From the IMG/VR virus record IMGVR_UViG_2534682294_000008: DNA of 4,813 nt; one strand, 5' to 3'. The position numbers were made by a program, and so were the translations under genes. Positions 1-4,813 of this stretch are shown piece by piece. The stretch comes from a virus (taxonomy: Duplodnaviria; Heunggongvirae; Uroviricota; Caudoviricetes). Position 1 is the first letter of the stretch. Every line of letters begins with the position of its first letter. The notes beneath the pieces were generated by a model. That model saw only the letters and a list, made by a program, of their open reading frames with translations, was not told the origin of the DNA and did not search any database.

Positions 1-285
1 GTGACTGCGCATACGGGCCACCAGCAGAGGCGGCATTGCCTTTTCGATCGCCGGTAACAGAGCCTGCATTTTTTCAACTGCATCAGGGGTGTCTTTCTCT
101 ATCCAGCGGAAAATTTTCTGGGTATTGCGAGCCAGGGCTTCCGGATGGCTGTCGTCGTACAGTTCAGGAAACGTCATACCCAACTCAAAATAAGCCTGGG
201 TTATTCCAGCTGCCGGAACTTTTTCGCCATCAGGACGCGCCCAGGCATTCATCGCCATGCGGATGTGTTCATGCTTGATTTTCAT
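1..285 (-). CDS. ydaT: YdaT-family regulator (CII-equivalent), N-terminal 95 codons only; gene continues beyond the window start
   Basis: Uninterrupted reverse-strand frame from ATG at 285..283 to position 1 (95 codons; absent from the ORF track because no stop lies inside the window). Translation begins MKIKHEHIRMAMNAWARPDGEKVPAAGITQAYFELGMTFPELYDD..., which I recognise from memory as the N-terminal signature of YdaT-type proteins of Rac/CP-933P-like prophages. G-rich RBS (AAGGGGGG) 4 nt upstream of the ATG. Lies directly downstream of, and overlapping, a Cro-like gene. Confidence 0.6.
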   Translation of the reverse strand, partial: MKIKHEHIRMAMNAWARPDGEKVPAAGITQAYFELGMTFPELYDDSHPEALARNTQKIFRWIEKDTPDAVEKMQALLPAIEKAMPPLLVARMRSH

Positions 286-511
286 GAATCCCCCCTTGGT
301 TAGAAGGCGGATTATGATCAGAATCGGGAATGACAACCGTCGGTATGTGTAACTCATATTTGAGCGCCCCGGCAGTGACTGCCTGAATTAGCAACGCCCA
401 TTTCCACGGAACGTCTTCCCCCCACATGCTGACTGTGGTTTTTGACGTTCCTAGAGCGGCGGCTGTTTTAACAACTCCGCCAAAATAGCCTAATACTTCT
501 GATTTTTTCAT
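269..511 (-). CDS. ydaS: Cro-like HTH transcriptional regulator (YdaS-type), 80 aa
   Basis: Reverse-strand ORF (track ORF 269..559) trimmed to the ATG at 511, which has a GGAG Shine-Dalgarno 6 nt upstream; the in-frame ATGs at 523 and 559 lack one. Product MKKSEVLGYFGGVVKTAAALGTSKTTVSMWGEDVPW... has the Cro/YdaS-type HTH pattern (GG..., LG.S...VS.W). Divergent from the CI-like repressor gene, as in a cI/cro switch. Confidence 0.7.
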   Translation of the reverse strand: MKKSEVLGYFGGVVKTAAALGTSKTTVSMWGEDVPWKWALLIQAVTAGALKYELHIPTVVIPDSDHNPPSNQGGIHENQA

Positions 512-602: not shown

Positions 603-1241
603 ATGAACAAGCAAACAATATCTGAACGCATAACCCAACGTATGCATGCGCTAAACTTGAAAGGCAAAGACCTTGTCAATGCCACTGGCGCATCAAAAGG
701 CTCCGTAAGTCAATGGATGAACGGTGGAGGAGCGCCGTCCTCGCGTTACATAAGTTCACTGGCAAAGATATTGAAAGTAAACGAAAATTGGCTTCTTAAT
801 GGAGGAGAGTTAAATACAGGTGATTCGCTTGATCTATCTTTACCGCCGATAAAAACGGTTCCGCTACTATCACTTCAGCAGGCAGCAAGCTGGAGTGATT
901 ATATGAAAAATTCCTCAATAACCTCTTGTGTGCAGCTTGTCGGAGAAATCCCGGCCAATACCTTTGCTGTTGTTCTAGAGAGTGACAGTATGTCGACATC
1001 TGGTGGTGGAGTTTCCATCCCAAATGGTTCAACAGTTTTTGTTGATCCCGATCGAATCGTACAACCAGGAAATATTGTCCTTGCCTTACCCAAAGGGACC
1101 ACAACGCCTGTCATTCGCAAACTGGAGATAGAAGGGCCGGATATTCTTTTAGTCCCCACGAATCCTCGCTACCCTTCAATTATGCTGGATGATCTATCTT
1201 GCATATTGGGAGTATGCTTTAAAATTCAACAAGATATTTAA
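603..1241 (+). CDS. cI: Lambda CI-like prophage repressor (HTH DNA-binding N-domain plus LexA/S24 peptidase-like C-domain), 212 aa
   Basis: Track ORF 603..1241. The N-domain contains LAKILKV, identical to a segment of lambda CI as I recall it. The linker PLLSLQQAASWSDY aligns with lambda PVFSHVQAGMFSPE. The C-domain has the S24 catalytic-serine motif (E-S-D-S-M, Ser129) and a Lys (K173 in VIRKLE) at the spacing expected of the Ser/Lys dyad, followed by a lambda-like LVPTNPRYPSIML segment. No Shine-Dalgarno: the operator-like site abuts the ATG, consistent with a leaderless transcript. Confidence 0.88.
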   Translation: MNKQTISERITQRMHALNLKGKDLVNATGASKGSVSQWMNGGGAPSSRYISSLAKILKVNENWLLNGGELNTGDSLDLSLPPIKTVPLLSLQQAASWSDYMKNSSITSCVQLVGEIPANTFAVVLESDSMSTSGGGVSIPNGSTVFVDPDRIVQPGNIVLALPKGTTTPVIRKLEIEGPDILLVPTNPRYPSIMLDDLSCILGVCFKIQQDI

Positions 1242-1324: not shown

Positions 1325-1353
1325 ATTGACCTTAAATGTTCGTTTTTCTAAAC
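1325..1353 (+). promoter_or_regulatory. Candidate sigma70 promoter with overlapping operator-like inverted repeat (possible pL/oL equivalent or moron promoter)
   Basis: TTGACC (1325-1330) -17 nt- TAAACT (1348-1353). Immediately upstream and overlapping the -35 is GTTTTGATAAAAAAC (1309-1323), whose reverse complement carries the same ATCAAAAC half-site as the two sites in the cI/cro intergenic region; it is part of a 7-bp AT-rich inverted repeat AATGTTT/AAACATT (1306-1312 / 1320-1326). Confidence 0.35.
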
Positions 1354-1452
1354 TTCATTCATTCCCTCACCCCGCCCCACAGAATGCAGGGCAATACTTC
1401 GAGTTACCAGGCAGTGGTCAGGGGTTAAGTAGCCAGCCCGAGGCGTAAGAAC

Positions 1453-1686
1453 ATGACGGCAGGGTTCAACTTTAATAACTATGCAGCAGGTTTTTGTTCC
1501 GCTACCCCGGCGTTAAGGGGAAATGAGGTCAACATGGATACGCTCAATCTTGGCAACAACGAATCTCTGGTATGTGGCGTGTTCCCCAACCAGGACGGTA
1601 CGTTCACCGCGATGACGTATACCAAAAGCAAAACGTTTAAAACTGAAGCTGGCGCGCGTCGCTGGTTAGCCAGAAACACTGACTGA
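1453..1686 (+). CDS. Small hypothetical protein, 77 aa (alternative start at 1534 gives 50 aa)
   Basis: Track ORF 1453..1686. GAGG 9 nt upstream of the ATG at 1453, and GAGG 5 nt upstream of the internal in-frame ATG at 1534, so the true start is ambiguous. Stop TGA (1684-1686) overlaps the next ATG (TGATG), suggesting translational coupling with the 216-aa gene. No family recognised. Confidence 0.45.
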   Translation: MTAGFNFNNYAAGFCSATPALRGNEVNMDTLNLGNNESLVCGVFPNQDGTFTAMTYTKSKTFKTEAGARRWLARNTD

Positions 1687-2336
1687 TGAGGTTGACGATG
1701 GAATTTAAAGATTTACCTCCTTCAATCCAGGAGATTGCAGCACACACACTTCGTCATCGTCTGAACGAACTTGAATTGGAATCGGTAACGAAAAAAGACA
1801 CTGATAATATGGCTCGTAATGTGCGCGATGCGTTTACCGGATTGTATTTCTGTGCGTCTATAAATAAACACGACTCAGAGAGTGTGGCAAATAAAATTGC
1901 AGAAACGACAGCGCAAAACATCAATACGAAACCAACGGAAGAAGAAATTGATCAGTTTGCTCATGATGCTGGTTTAAAAAACAAGAAAGAAAAATCGCCA
2001 TATGCGGGGAACATGTTTGTTTATGACAATCTCATCAGAATTCGTGGCGAAATTCCGGCGGAATACCTGGCAAGAGTCCATCAGGCATTGCTTAAAAATT
2101 TGGAAACAGAATTATTTGATGGCAACACTAACGGTTTCTTCATGGTATCAGGCCTTGAGAAAGACTGGGATGCAGAAAAACGCTGGAATGTTGCTACATG
2201 GTTATTCAGTAACAGAGCCGCTGCACTGGAAGCTTCGGCATGTATTTGCGGCCTGTTCTTAACAGACCACAAATATAATCTGGATGTGTACAGTTATATT
2301 TACGCTGAACACGGTCCACTCTGGATTGACTGGTAA
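1686..2336 (+). CDS. Hypothetical soluble protein, 216 aa, unknown function (alternative start at 1698)
   Basis: Track ORF 1686..2336 with TGATG overlap to the upstream small gene. The in-frame ATG at 1698 (MEFKDLPP...) has GAGG 6 nt upstream. Long open frame in an AT-rich context with no predicted transmembrane segment and no catalytic motif I can recognise. Confidence 0.65.
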   Translation: MRLTMEFKDLPPSIQEIAAHTLRHRLNELELESVTKKDTDNMARNVRDAFTGLYFCASINKHDSESVANKIAETTAQNINTKPTEEEIDQFAHDAGLKNKKEKSPYAGNMFVYDNLIRIRGEIPAEYLARVHQALLKNLETELFDGNTNGFFMVSGLEKDWDAEKRWNVATWLFSNRAAALEASACICGLFLTDHKYNLDVYSYIYAEHGPLWIDW

Positions 2337-2546
2337 TTATAAGGAAACACCAGCAGGGCCGCGGCGACCAACAGAACGATTAAAATCAATAATGCCATTA
2401 TAAAGGACATTATTTAATTTATCGTAGAATGCTGATTCTGTGAGCCTCAACTCTGAATGAGTTTTTAATAACCCTGATTGCCTGAGTTGATTTACCAGGC
2501 ATTCAATCTGTTTTTCAATAAGCGGATTTCTTTTTTTGTTTGGCAT
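2337..2546 (-). CDS. Small hypothetical protein, 69 aa, convergent with the 216-aa gene
   Basis: Track ORF 2337..2558 trimmed to the ATG at 2546 (MPNKKRNPL...), which has a strong GGAGG 5 nt upstream. Its stop codon (2339..2337) directly abuts the stop of the forward 216-aa gene (2334-2336). No family recognised. Confidence 0.45.
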   Translation of the reverse strand: MPNKKRNPLIEKQIECLVNQLRQSGLLKTHSELRLTESAFYDKLNNVLYNGIIDFNRSVGRRGPAGVSL

Positions 2547-2589: not shown

Positions 2590-2960
2590 CGCTGTCACGT
2601 GTGGTCGTGCGCCGGACACGGATAAGAATCCGGTACTGACAGTTTACTGAAAGGATATTTCCCTGAAAAGTCAGTGCATAACGCGAAAGCGTACGGCGAA
2701 GCTCTTTCCCTTAGAAGGCTTGTCGTTAGATTTCTTCGAACGTGCGCTTCCGGTTGTGGCACTCCGCGAAATGGCGCGGCGGTAAGTATGGCGGGGTTAT
2801 TCCTTCCCCATTGAGGACACCGGGTTGTCAGGTTGACCATACGCTTAAGTGACAACCCCGCTGCAACGCCCTCTGTTATCAATTTTCTGGTGACGTTTGG
2901 CGGTATCAGTTTTACTCCGTGGCTGCTCTGCCGCCCTTTTTAAAGTGAATTTTGTGATGC
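2590..2960. other. GC-rich, hairpin-dense non-coding island (candidate structured RNA or regulatory/recombination region)
   Basis: No credible ORF on either strand; the only track ORF here (2595..2882, -) translates to an R/P/A-rich low-complexity product. Multiple short GC stems: CCGGA/TCCGG (2612-2633), ACGC-GAAA-GCGT (2681-2692, GNRA tetraloop), CCGCG/CGCGG (2764-2779), GGGG/CCCC (2793-2809), a 9-bp perfect inverted repeat (2822-2858), and a GC stem followed by TTTTT (about 2899-2941). Composition contrasts with the AT-rich flanking genes. Confidence 0.3.
2822..2858. repeat. Perfect 9-bp inverted repeat GGGTTGTCA ... TGACAACCC with 19-bp spacer
   Basis: Read directly: 2822-2830 GGGTTGTCA and 2850-2858 TGACAACCC are exact reverse complements. 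Could be an RNA stem-loop or a dimeric protein-binding site. Confidence 0.5.
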
Positions 2961-3034
2961 GGTGAATGCGGCTAAGCGCACGCGGAACAGTTAAAACCAA
3001 AAACAGTGTTATGGGTGGATTCTCTGTATCCGGC

Positions 3035-3055
3035 GTTAATTGTTAACTGGTTAAC
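3035..3055. promoter_or_regulatory. Tandem GTTAAY repeats (GTTAAT, GTTAAC, GTTAAC) upstream of the downstream + strand gene block; candidate regulator-binding array
   Basis: GTTAAT (3035-3040), GTTAAC (3042-3047), GTTAAC (3050-3055) at 7-8 bp spacing; the last two form the inverted repeat TTAAC-TG-GTTAA. Located about 55-75 bp upstream of the start codon at 3111. Confidence 0.25.
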
Positions 3056-3110
3056 GTCACCTGGAGGCACCAGGCACTGCATCACAAAATTCATTGTTGA
3101 GGACGCGATA

Positions 3111-3299
3111 ATGGAAACGTTATTACCAAACGTTAATACGTCTGAAGGTTGTTTTGATATTGGTGTTCTGCTCAGTAACCGGGAGTTTACTGAAGATGCC
3201 ATTAACATGAGGAAATATGAGCCTTATCTGCTCAATGATAATTCCATACTTTCCCGAATTGCTCTTCTTGAACTTGGTATTTTCGGAGAACGTCAATGA
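3111..3299 (+). CDS. Small hypothetical protein, 62 aa
   Basis: Track ORF 3006..3299 trimmed to the ATG at 3111 (METLLPNVNT...), which has GAGGA 7 nt upstream; the longer form would read through the GTTAAY repeat array. Stop TGA overlaps the next start (ATGA at 3296-3299). No family recognised; not Arg-rich, so not an N-type antiterminator. Confidence 0.5.
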   Translation: METLLPNVNTSEGCFDIGVLLSNREFTEDAINMRKYEPYLLNDNSILSRIALLELGIFGERQ

Positions 3300-3484
3300 C
3301 TTCAGCATTTGCACTGATGATGACGGTTTTTCTTATAACGGGTGAATCACAGAATGTGATTACCGGAATTTATGCCAGTAAAGAATCCTGCCTCCAGGCA
3401 AGAGACGAGCAAAAAATTTCTGGTGAATGCCTCCCGGTAAAAAAAGTATCGCTGTACCTGAATAACGAAACACCGGCTGGATAA
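3296..3484 (+). CDS. Small membrane-anchored or secreted hypothetical protein, 62 aa
   Basis: Track ORF 3296..3484 with GGAG 7 nt upstream and ATGA overlap to the preceding gene. N-terminus MTSAFALMMTVFLITG is a hydrophobic segment (signal-anchor or signal-peptide-like) followed by a hydrophilic domain with two Cys residues. Confidence 0.5.
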   Translation: MTSAFALMMTVFLITGESQNVITGIYASKESCLQARDEQKISGECLPVKKVSLYLNNETPAG

Positions 3485-3576: not shown

Positions 3577-4740
3577 ATGAGCACTGATAAAGAAGAATTT
3601 GCGCTATATTGCGAAGCAAAAAATGACAAAGTCAGAAAACGTCTGGGAATTAAAGGTGGTTTTTACTGGACTACAGCAAAAAAATTATCTGTTGCCATCT
3701 CCCGCTGCATTACCGCAATGGATGACAACGATTATGATGAAGACGACTTTAAAAAACCCGTTCGCGTCCATTTACCCGTTGTGAATGACCTTCCACCTGA
3801 AGGCGTGTTTGATACCGAATTCTGCAACCGATACGAAAAAGGCGGGGAAGATGGCATTACAATGGTATTTATCGCGCCCTCTCCCTCCGTGCAGGAGAAA
3901 CCAGCCAGTACTGACAATACCAACGTCAACGGCGAAGACATGACGGAGATTGAGGAGAATATGCTCCTGCCGGTTTCTGGTCAGGAGCTGCCCATTCGCT
4001 GGCTTGCGCAACACGGCAGCGAAAAACCAGTAACGCACGTTGCACGGGAAGAACTTCAGGCATTACATATAGCACGGGCGGAAGAACTGCCGGCTGTTAC
4101 TGCCCTGGCCATTTCTCACAAAACAAAGCTGCTCGACCCGCTGGAGATTCGCGACCTTCACAAACTGGTACGCGACACTGACAAAGTTTTCCCTAATCCC
4201 GGTAATTCAGACCTGGGACTGATAACTGCTTTTTTCGAGGCATACCTGGACGCTGACTACACTGATCGGGGTCTGCTGACAAAAGAGTGGATGAAAGGAA
4301 ATCGTGTTTCGCGTATCACCCGTACGGCTTCCGGTGCAAATGCCGGTGGCGGGAACAAAACCGATCGCAATCCGAATTTAGTACACACCTTCGATACGCT
4401 GGATGTGGAGATTGCAGCAGCCACACTTCCGATGGATTTTAATATTTATGAAATTCCGGGCAGCGTTTATCGTCGCGCAAAAGAAATCGTCCTGAAAAGA
4501 GAAAGTCCGTTCAAAGAATGGTCCGCAGCACTTCGCGCAACCCCGGGTATTCTGGACTATTCCCGCGCCGCTATTTTTGCACTTATCCGGAGCGCTCACC
4601 CTGAGTTTTATCACTACCCGGGACGCCTTCAGGGGTATATCAACGCCTACTTAACGGAGACTGATCACGAGAACCCCAGCAAGGAAACTCTCACTGCTGC
4701 ACGACATACACCGGAAAAAGATATCCTGGAAGAAGTGTAA
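3577..4740 (+). CDS. Hypothetical acidic protein, 387 aa, unknown function
   Basis: Track ORF 3577..4740, the longest ORF in the window, with GAGG 7 nt upstream of the ATG. Contains an acidic tract ([10 protein letters not shown]) and a Gly-rich loop ([11 protein letters not shown]) that does not fit a Walker A consensus. No family recognised. Confidence 0.75.
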
Positions 4741-4813
4741 GCGTACAGCGAGGGCCGTATTGACGGGGATGTGTTATTCAGCTGGCAGTGCTATGCGCCA
4801 CGGAAGCAGTTCG

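Follow-up and report, generated by a model that had tools for sequence, protein, structure and literature searches.

We asked what lies directly behind the repressor gene in the DNA analysed here (IMG/VR virus record IMGVR_UViG_2534682294_000008, Caudoviricetes; 4813 bp, called the window below). A first-pass annotation had marked two open reading frames (ORFs) at 1453-2336 as an unrecognised, translationally coupled cassette following a CI-like repressor gene, and proposed that they form an exclusion, defence or toxin-antitoxin module. We find instead that both ORFs are promoter-proximal cistrons of a Qin-type dicBF operon, the early-left (PL-equivalent) operon, in a defective lambdoid prophage of Escherichia coli O157:H7. 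The explanation that we consider probable overall is that these cistrons are silenced by CI, and that the larger one encodes a 212-aa accessory protein whose partner is a 69-aa protein encoded by a convergent gene at 2337-2546, which the two-gene cassette as first drawn had left out. The parts of this explanation are not equally firm: we hold the context and regulation to be very likely correct, and the functional part is treated separately below.

The identity of the operon was established by comparison with sequenced prophages. The window differs from EDL933 by only 2 mismatches and 1 gap across 4740 bp (99.9% identity), and its near-identical counterparts are defective lambdoid prophages of E. 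coli O157:H7 and O121. It contains, in order, a cro-like gene, the CI gene, an operator and promoter, ydfA, the 212-aa gene, the convergent 69-aa gene, the dicF leader, DicF, dicB, ydfD and a truncated recE. This assignment is based on Pfam matches to DUF1391, DicB, DUF1482 and Exonuc_VIII, on an Rfam match to DicF, and on homology (blastn) to the K-12 Qin prophage, which covers 1496-1677 (ydfA) at 88% identity and resumes from 2606 onward (dicF leader, DicF, dicB) at 93%. Three features of a Qin-type operon were found: a divergent cro-like/repressor switch upstream (dicC/dicA in K-12), ydfA as the promoter-proximal gene, and DicF inside a long untranslated stretch, with dicB and ydfD after it. 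Furthermore, the window shares with K-12 Qin a RecE/YdfE-type exonuclease gene and a promoter in the same position with the same TTGACC -35 element. The two differ in that the window repressor is CI/LexA-like with an S24 domain and uses another operator, whereas K-12 has the short DicA; in that the 212-aa and convergent 69-aa genes stand in place of K-12 ydfB and ydfC; and in that recE is truncated in the window. In K-12, dicBp upstream of ydfA is the DicA-repressed promoter of the operon (~22-fold repression); this repression is relieved by the antirepressor Rem or by stress, or is lost spontaneously, and the promoter gives a single polycistronic RNA, ydfABC-dicF-dicB-ydfD, from which DicF is processed (PMC10448788, PMC5069750). 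Several partial dicBF loci in O157 strains have already been published (PMC5069750), and enterohaemorrhagic E. coli (EHEC) strains have four dicF copies, with DicF feeding into virulence regulation (PMC7873438). The operon type, YdfA, DicF, DicB and YdfD are already known.

The three genes at the centre of the question are the following (PGAP, Prokaryotic Genome Annotation Pipeline).

1534-1686, plus strand: ydfA homologue, 50 aa (DUF1391, Pfam PF07151; phrog_751; WP_000380316.1), 88% DNA identity to K-12 ydfA
1698-2336, plus strand: 212-aa gene (PGAP product 212 aa; WP_000394548.1; phrog_2151; 'Ybl81')
2337-2546, minus strand: 69-aa gene (WP_001133037.1; phrog_4274), its stop adjoining that of the 212-aa gene, with GGAGG 5 nt before the ATG

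Both ORFs originally described, 1453-1686 (77 aa) and 1686-2336 (216 aa), are indeed present on the plus strand after a CI-like gene (603-1241, HTH_3 and Peptidase_S24), but their limits and the supposed novelty of the first had to be revised. The small ORF, described as unrecognised, belongs to the known DUF1391/YdfA family: it matches Pfam PF07151 with E=1.2e-29 and 102 bits (cut-off 27.3), over residues 29-75 of 77 only, and phrog_751 with E=9.6e-36. Of the two forms proposed for it, 77 aa and 50 aa, the shorter one stands and the longer was rejected. The 27-codon extension is not conserved, having no start codon in K-12 and frameshifts plus in-frame stops in closely related leaders, while ATG 1534 is preceded by a Shine-Dalgarno (SD) sequence, GAGG, 5 nt upstream; since, in addition, the Pfam match stops short of the extension and the PGAP product has 50 aa, we take 50 aa as the real form. 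Likewise, the TGATG stop/start overlap is not the junction in use. Homologues of the large protein begin with MEFKDLP, corresponding to ATG 1698, in nearly all cases (1 of 25 aligned with the MRLT extension), and this ATG has its own SD (GAGG, 1689-1692) directly after the ydfA stop and is the start called by PGAP. The conserved start thus leaves an 11-nt spacer between ydfA and the 212-aa gene, across which translational coupling is possible. The description of the pair as AT-rich holds for the 212-aa gene (GC content 0.413 against a window mean of 0.459) and fails for ydfA (0.503). Among PADLOC models YdfA matched only AbiEi (E=0.047), which we dismissed as a chance match that is not credible. 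A single paper naming DUF1391 was found, an unrelated genome-wide association study.

We next considered how these genes are controlled. The region upstream contains the following features.

269-511, minus strand: cro-like gene of the P22_Cro family, 80 aa from MKKSEV (Pfam PF14549, E=1.7e-15; PGAP 'Cro/CI family transcriptional regulator' in EDL933/TR01)
586-603: putative OR-like operator palindrome TGTTTTAAAATCAAAACA between cro and cI, exact TGTTTT-N6-AAAACA (repeat family D1)
603-1241, plus strand: CI-type repressor, 212 aa (Pfam HTH_3 and Peptidase_S24; phrog_4)
1242-1533: cI-ydfA intergenic region
1308-1325: putative OL-like operator palindrome TGTTTTGATAAAAAAACA, abutting the -35 element, exact TGTTTT-N6-AAAACA
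1326-1354, plus strand: candidate early-left promoter, sigma-70-like TTGACC-17-TAAACT, the positional equivalent of K-12 dicBp

The candidate promoter proposed in the first-pass annotation was recovered by a consensus scan, and the K-12 alignment places TTGACC at the position equivalent to its -35 element. The exact palindrome TGTTTT-N6-AAAACA occurs twice in the window, at 586-603 and 1308-1325 only, compared to no occurrence in 200 shuffles, and degenerate copies lie at 540-558 on the cro/cI side and at 1335-1353, the second of which covers the promoter spacer and the -10 element. We compared 131 distinct regions upstream of ydfA, taken from retrieved loci: the palindrome was seen in 10 of the 11 that carry the helix-turn-helix (HTH) domain of the window CI and was missing from 118 of 119 with other repressors. 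Such co-variation with repressor type is the behaviour expected of an immunity-specific operator. Because the promoter adjoins this CI-type-specific palindrome, control of ydfA and the 212-aa gene by the repressor, as early genes, is most likely, judging from the arrangement of these sites; the reservation in the first-pass annotation, that the cassette might be repressor-controlled, expressed upon induction and early in function, is the version of its claim that the operator and promoter position and the repressor-specific palindrome favour. A structured leader RNA at 1360-1540 was unsupported (z=+1.16). PGAP in O157 genomes calls only the C-terminal 112 aa of CI, as 'LexA family protein', although the full 212-aa ORF with HTH and S24 domains is intact, including in EDL933.

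This arrangement also bears on the comparison with lambda. In lambda, rexA-rexB occupy the interval from cI to OL/PL, and the lysogen transcribes them together with cI; on this model the first-pass annotation read the pair as a coupled exclusion, abortive-infection or toxin-antitoxin module active in the lysogen. The likeness is that the window genes, too, follow a CI-type repressor gene of a lambdoid immunity region and are read in its direction. However, cI is separated from the genes by the operator (1308-1325) and the promoter (1326-1354), which puts the genes in the position of the first PL genes and not in that of rexAB. One E. coli locus (L022, 2007-2671, minus strand) does have a HigB-toxin/HTH antitoxin pair inserted after the repressor gene and ahead of ydfA, and it is this site that is the true position 'between repressor and early promoter' that the first-pass annotation had in mind.

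In addition, the proposed pairing of YdfA with the large protein was not conserved. DNA of the ydfA region is present in 4400 of 5426 complete E. coli genomes and the 212-aa cassette in 843 (568 at >=80% coverage), making the former ~5-8 times more widespread. In Escherichia sp. E4742, ydfB lies between ydfA and the 212-aa homologue; in other loci, genes sharing the N-terminal module of the 212-aa protein (N-module, described below) follow ydfA-ydfB-ydfC; and no DUF1391 gene was found at the Salmonella loci with homologues of the 212-aa gene. In favour of a coupled module, only 11 nt separate the two co-oriented genes and an SD lies at the end of ydfA. This 11-nt arrangement is the commonest, occurring in 70 of 79 IMG/VR loci with ydfA within 700 nt, but it is not obligatory, and the start codon that overlaps the ydfA stop is not the one that homologues conserve. 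Also in favour, DicB from this type of operon is known to exclude some phages (PMC6832061). Neither ORF has a credible match to RexA or RexB, to PADLOC models, or to toxin or antitoxin families at the thresholds used. Non-conserved pairing thus largely refutes the rexAB-like reading, which we now regard as highly improbable, and we infer that YdfA is a conserved leader cistron and not the specific partner of the 212-aa protein. The idea of a small partner with an effector survives only if the convergent 69-aa gene supplies the partner.

The 212-aa protein consists of a helical N-module (aa 1 to ~58), a linker and a C-terminal ββ-α-ββ-α-β sandwich domain (C-domain, aa ~98-212), and is predicted to be soluble with an isoelectric point (pI) of 5.2. 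The N-module, with the consensus MEFKDLP..QEMAA..IDN..RNVR.AF.GLY and predicted to be helical, heads ~45 clusters of proteins with unrelated C-tails, some of which are frameshift products. The full-length protein forms a single 50%-identity cluster among 1.84 billion representatives, its sole full-length family is phrog_2151, and the alpha/beta C-domain was found only in Escherichia and Salmonella prophage-like elements. Among 50,697 deposited phage genomes the cassette was essentially absent, the sole match being a weak one to its first 138 bp in phage Evi. The ratio of nonsynonymous to synonymous substitution (dN/dS) was 0.12-0.23 for the C-domain and 0.25-0.55 for the N-module. Residues invariant in both branches of the C-domain alignment are mainly P, M, Y, L, I, G, F, W and A, together with one Asp, one Asn and one Glu, and none is Cys, His, Ser or Lys; since they are chiefly hydrophobic or structural, we read the protein as non-enzymatic.

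Profile hidden Markov model searches, which placed the small ORF in DUF1391, returned no credible family for the 212-aa protein, and structure searches gave only generic fold matches for it. Neither this protein nor the 69-aa protein had a recognisable fold, or a credible match in Pfam, NCBIfam, PADLOC or PDB-sequence searches at the thresholds used, and profile searches with N-module, C-domain and 69-aa alignments gave nothing credible. An RPA32 match (E=0.28) in the family/profile searches was too weak and was dismissed as chance; YdfB and YdfC were rejected as relatives of either protein (hhalign probability 0.3%); and weak BFVD fold matches to a Prp/YsxB-like cysteine protease were set aside, there being no invariant Cys or His and TM-scores of at most 0.46. 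We found no paper that mentions Ybl81 or the WP accessions.

We then asked which gene accompanies the 212-aa gene across lineages. The 69-aa protein is basic (pI 9.9) and predicted to be soluble, only its own frame is open in the gene, and its dN/dS is 0.15-0.27. The 212-aa and 69-aa genes are both real and under purifying selection. A 69-aa homologue lies beside C-domain homologues in every lineage examined, being frameshifted or uncalled in some loci. The pair occurs in E. coli in lambdoid prophages with CI-type or DicA-type repressors, and in Salmonella in elements with a Mu-type repressor and in P2-like integrase/C/Cox elements at several chromosomal sites. In the Salmonella elements with a P2-like switch the large and small genes overlap by 10-53 nt, and this includes a variant (L205-L207, 5001-5861) whose 286-aa C-domain homologue carries a CI-like HTH_3 domain between its N-terminal domain and the C-domain; this insert resembles the HTH of the window CI (…SSRYI..LA..LK…WLL.G). 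The two proteins diverge together, with identities of 99/84/75/52% for the 69-aa protein and 100/70-78/70/29% for the large protein. Shared divergence and pairing across lineages thus identify C-domain plus 69-aa protein, and not YdfA plus 212-aa protein, as the conserved unit, and this long-standing convergent pairing is previously unremarked.

How the pair is inserted into the operon is shown by comparison with K-12 and with other prophages.

1678-2605: cassette substituted relative to K-12 Qin, which has ydfB and ydfC here (blastn)
2606-2884, plus strand: untranslated dicF leader, the right recombination arm, 93% identical to K-12 and kept in all cassette types

The arms of the cassette are ydfA and the N-module on the left and the dicF leader on the right. 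At least seven unrelated C-tails occur on the conserved N-module, and in several other cases the N-module gene also faces an unrelated convergent small ORF with an SD (112-119/64, 179/80, 201/63 and 130/79 aa). The 5' flank and SD of the 69-aa gene (AACCTCAATGGAGGATAAA-ATG) recur in three or four of these small genes, the last ~60 nt of the cassette (2547-2605) being common to several unrelated reverse-gene cassettes, and upstream of this flank is the conserved dicF leader, which is also in K-12. The shared flank and leader thus delimit a variable core, consisting of C-tail and small reverse gene, between the N-module and the dicF leader, and because the left arm lies inside coding sequence, each swap makes a chimeric protein. 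The ydfA-to-dicF interval is a recombination hotspot with highly mosaic content. A rule that each N-module tail has a cognate convergent gene proved only partly true and is weakened by the T1 class discussed below. In the Salmonella loci L003 and L004 the first N-module gene is closely followed by a paralogue (119 aa, 5979-6338, plus strand), with which a convergent 64-aa gene (6305-6499, minus strand) overlaps.

Temperate phages have other accessory hotspots, such as those of P2 that carry defence systems, and the window resembles these in having a variable cassette at a fixed position between conserved arms, with many alternative contents in related prophages. It differs in that its left arm is within coding sequence, yielding chimeric proteins, in that its contents are PADLOC-negative, and in that the slot is inside a repressed early operon. 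The mosaic nature of the interval raises the possibility that the two genes are functionally unrelated neighbours, the 212-aa gene an early accessory gene and the 69-aa gene an independent reverse moron expressed in the lysogen. Consistent with this, reverse genes come and go beside the same type of N-module: in L104 the N-module gene runs directly into the dicF leader without a reverse gene, and in L107 a truncated N-module gene lies beside a reverse 91-aa gene. Furthermore, the same 64-aa reverse gene as in L003 and L004 persists intact beside a degraded N-module gene in O104:H4 (L012, 3828-4022 and 3501-3651, respectively), and either member of the 212/69 pair is found broken singly. However, the pairing is kept down to 29% and 52% identity of the large and small proteins despite different switches, different N-terminal domains and non-conserved flanks, a divergence at which one would expect two unrelated hotspot genes to have come apart. 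We consider independence of the two genes possible.

A second alternative is that the pair is an induction-coupled effector with an immunity-like antidote, in which a harmful 212-aa effector would be made on derepression and the 69-aa protein, expressed from its own promoter, would specifically neutralise it. The analogy is with the operons of pore-forming colicins, in which an SOS-repressed toxin gene comes first, an immunity gene on the other strand second and a lysis gene last. Similarly, the window has a candidate promoter probably repressed by a LexA/CI-type protein, a large gene whose N-terminal part is conserved and whose C-terminal part varies, an opposite-strand small gene directly after it, and ydfD, a lysis gene, further downstream. 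The analogy is one of layout: the window pair has no homology to colicins and no membrane or pore domain, a promoter for its small gene was looked for and not found, and some natural loci do without an intact copy of that gene. An effector and antidote would fit the one conserved N-module with its unrelated tails, several of which have convergent genes of their own, the deep co-divergence of C-domain and 69-aa protein, and the opposite charges of the two proteins, and downstream members of the K-12 operon are toxic or lytic (PMC5069750, PMC10448788). Against this, the 212-aa protein has no toxin-like fold, catalytic residue set or PADLOC match, and the further counter-evidence is the same as that set out in the next paragraph for a cognate partner. 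We judge an effector/antidote pair unlikely, and the broader proposal that the ydfA-dicF interval hosts a whole polymorphic family of induction-coupled effectors and antidotes, with a shared N-module, swappable C-domains and opposite-strand cognates, of which the 212/69 pair would be one ancient member, somewhat less likely still.

In the explanation that we favour, binding of CI would keep the plus-strand genes silent, and its inactivation would allow them to be transcribed as one polycistron with DicF, DicB and YdfD. The 212-aa protein, made early after derepression, would be a soluble non-enzymatic binding or adaptor protein acting, like its operon neighbours, probably on a component of the host or of a competing phage, and the basic 69-aa protein, transcribed against the operon, would be its cognate partner, an antagonist or regulator. 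This functional part we put forward tentatively, as possible but doubtful. Several observations weigh against the explanation. On the side of regulation, K-12 Qin is the source from which we extrapolate both the polycistronic transcript and its silence in the lysogen; a terminator scan of the window found no intrinsic terminator between cI and the promoter, leaving read-through from the cI promoter possible; and, although SDSM and IRKL dyad motifs are present in CI, QAAS stands at the position expected for Ala-Gly cleavage, so that SOS inducibility is not assured. On the side of function, the fold matches of the 212-aa protein are generic and uninformative; the largest other N-module class, T1 (106-124 aa), shows no reverse gene consistently across its 53 dereplicated loci; and an intact large gene accompanies a frameshifted small gene in 7 IMG/VR loci and, with the frameshift at the C-terminal end, in 2 Salmonella loci. 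The 212-aa and 69-aa genes also abut, and physical linkage alone predicts a one-to-one association. Moreover, a scan found no convincing promoter for the 69-aa gene, the sole usable candidate being a weak TTTTCA-17-TAAACT inside the leader that is also in K-12. The T1 class with its lack of a consistent partner, adjacency and the broken small genes leave a strict antidote role of the 69-aa protein unsupported.

Two further observations concern the small gene. The 7 IMG/VR loci (L024, L027, L031, L036, L051, L058 and L064) are near-identical and share a 1-nt deletion in the A7 tract at 2531-2537 (minus strand, codons 3-6), which frameshifts the gene after 6 codons and could be slipped-strand variation or a draft-assembly error. 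A promoter scan match at 2574-2545 was rejected since it overlaps the ATG and cannot serve the gene.

We also considered if the 69-aa gene might act through its transcription, in cis or in trans, with or without its protein, either insulating the toxic dicF-dicB-ydfD genes from leaky transcription further upstream or supplying an antisense RNA for processing by RNase III. The gene is convergent and placed between the promoter and dicF, no terminator was found on either side of it, the small genes have the conserved dicF leader as their upstream arm, and processing or stability of the K-12 dicBF mRNA requires RNase III (PMC10448788). However, the K-12 and T1 loci do without any reverse gene, a strong antisense promoter was not found, and purifying selection on the 69-aa protein sequence shows a role for the protein and not for transcription of its gene alone. 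We consider such a regulator of the operon very unlikely.

Downstream of the cassette, the window continues with the remainder of the operon.

2885-2936, plus strand: DicF small RNA with terminator hairpin (Rfam RF00039, 75 bits, gathering score 48, E=7.6e-16; terminator-like site at 2919-2934)
3111-3299, plus strand: dicB, cell-division inhibitor, 62 aa (Pfam PF05358, E=2.7e-36; PGAP dicB)
3296-3484, plus strand: ydfD-like gene (DUF1482, Pfam PF07358), whose K-12 homologue is annotated 'lysis protein'
3577-4740, plus strand: truncated recE, the N-terminal part of exonuclease VIII, 387 aa of ~870 (Pfam PF06630; PRK09709 positions 1-388 of 877)

With its full DicF, the window represents one of the several dicF copies present in EHEC. 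At 2934-3143 (plus strand), across the dicF-dicB spacer and into the beginning of dicB, Rfam gave a match to STnc100 below threshold (34.7 bits, gathering score 47, E=5.6e-05), which may represent a conserved structured dicB leader. Some dicB operons may do without dicF: in L007 (Escherichia sp. E4742) and L010 (E. coli) no DicF reached the Rfam gathering score between the 69-aa gene and dicB, the DicB and DUF1482 genes being present, and in L007 the 69-aa-to-dicB spacer is ~380 nt compared to 565 nt in the window. The start of the ydfD-like gene overlaps the dicB stop (ATGA). PGAP calls recE in O157 'incomplete', and homology to the O157 prophage recE stops at 4740; the last 77 bases of the window (4737-4813) match in reverse orientation a site adjoining IS256/ISEc8 insertion-sequence remnants in strain TR01 (L001, 16764-16840). 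The break at 4740 and the inverted match thus indicate that recE was truncated by rearrangement and that the prophage is defective. In the Salmonella loci L003, L005, L014 and L016, the early operon that encodes the 212-aa homologue also contains, ~2-4 kb beyond the cassette, arrays of C4 antisense RNA and isrK matches; these arrays adjoin Phage_ASH/'Derepression' genes and resemble the immI antirepressor module of P1/P7 type.

The dicBF operon is a well-studied case of toxic prophage genes retained by E. coli, and its O157:H7 copy carries different cargo than K-12 at the promoter-proximal position. The relevant unit to study is consequently the 212-aa gene with the convergent 69-aa gene under derepression, and not the ydfA pair in the resting lysogen. 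The corrected picture largely deflates the original claim and replaces it with a specific, testable hypothesis in a medically relevant strain. If the pair did prove to be an effector/antidote module, it would represent a new layout among prophage conflict systems, and if not, ordinary mosaic prophage cargo; were a whole family of such pairs to occupy this interval, it would place colicin-like genetic logic inside a prophage early operon, for use in conflict between phages or between phage and host.

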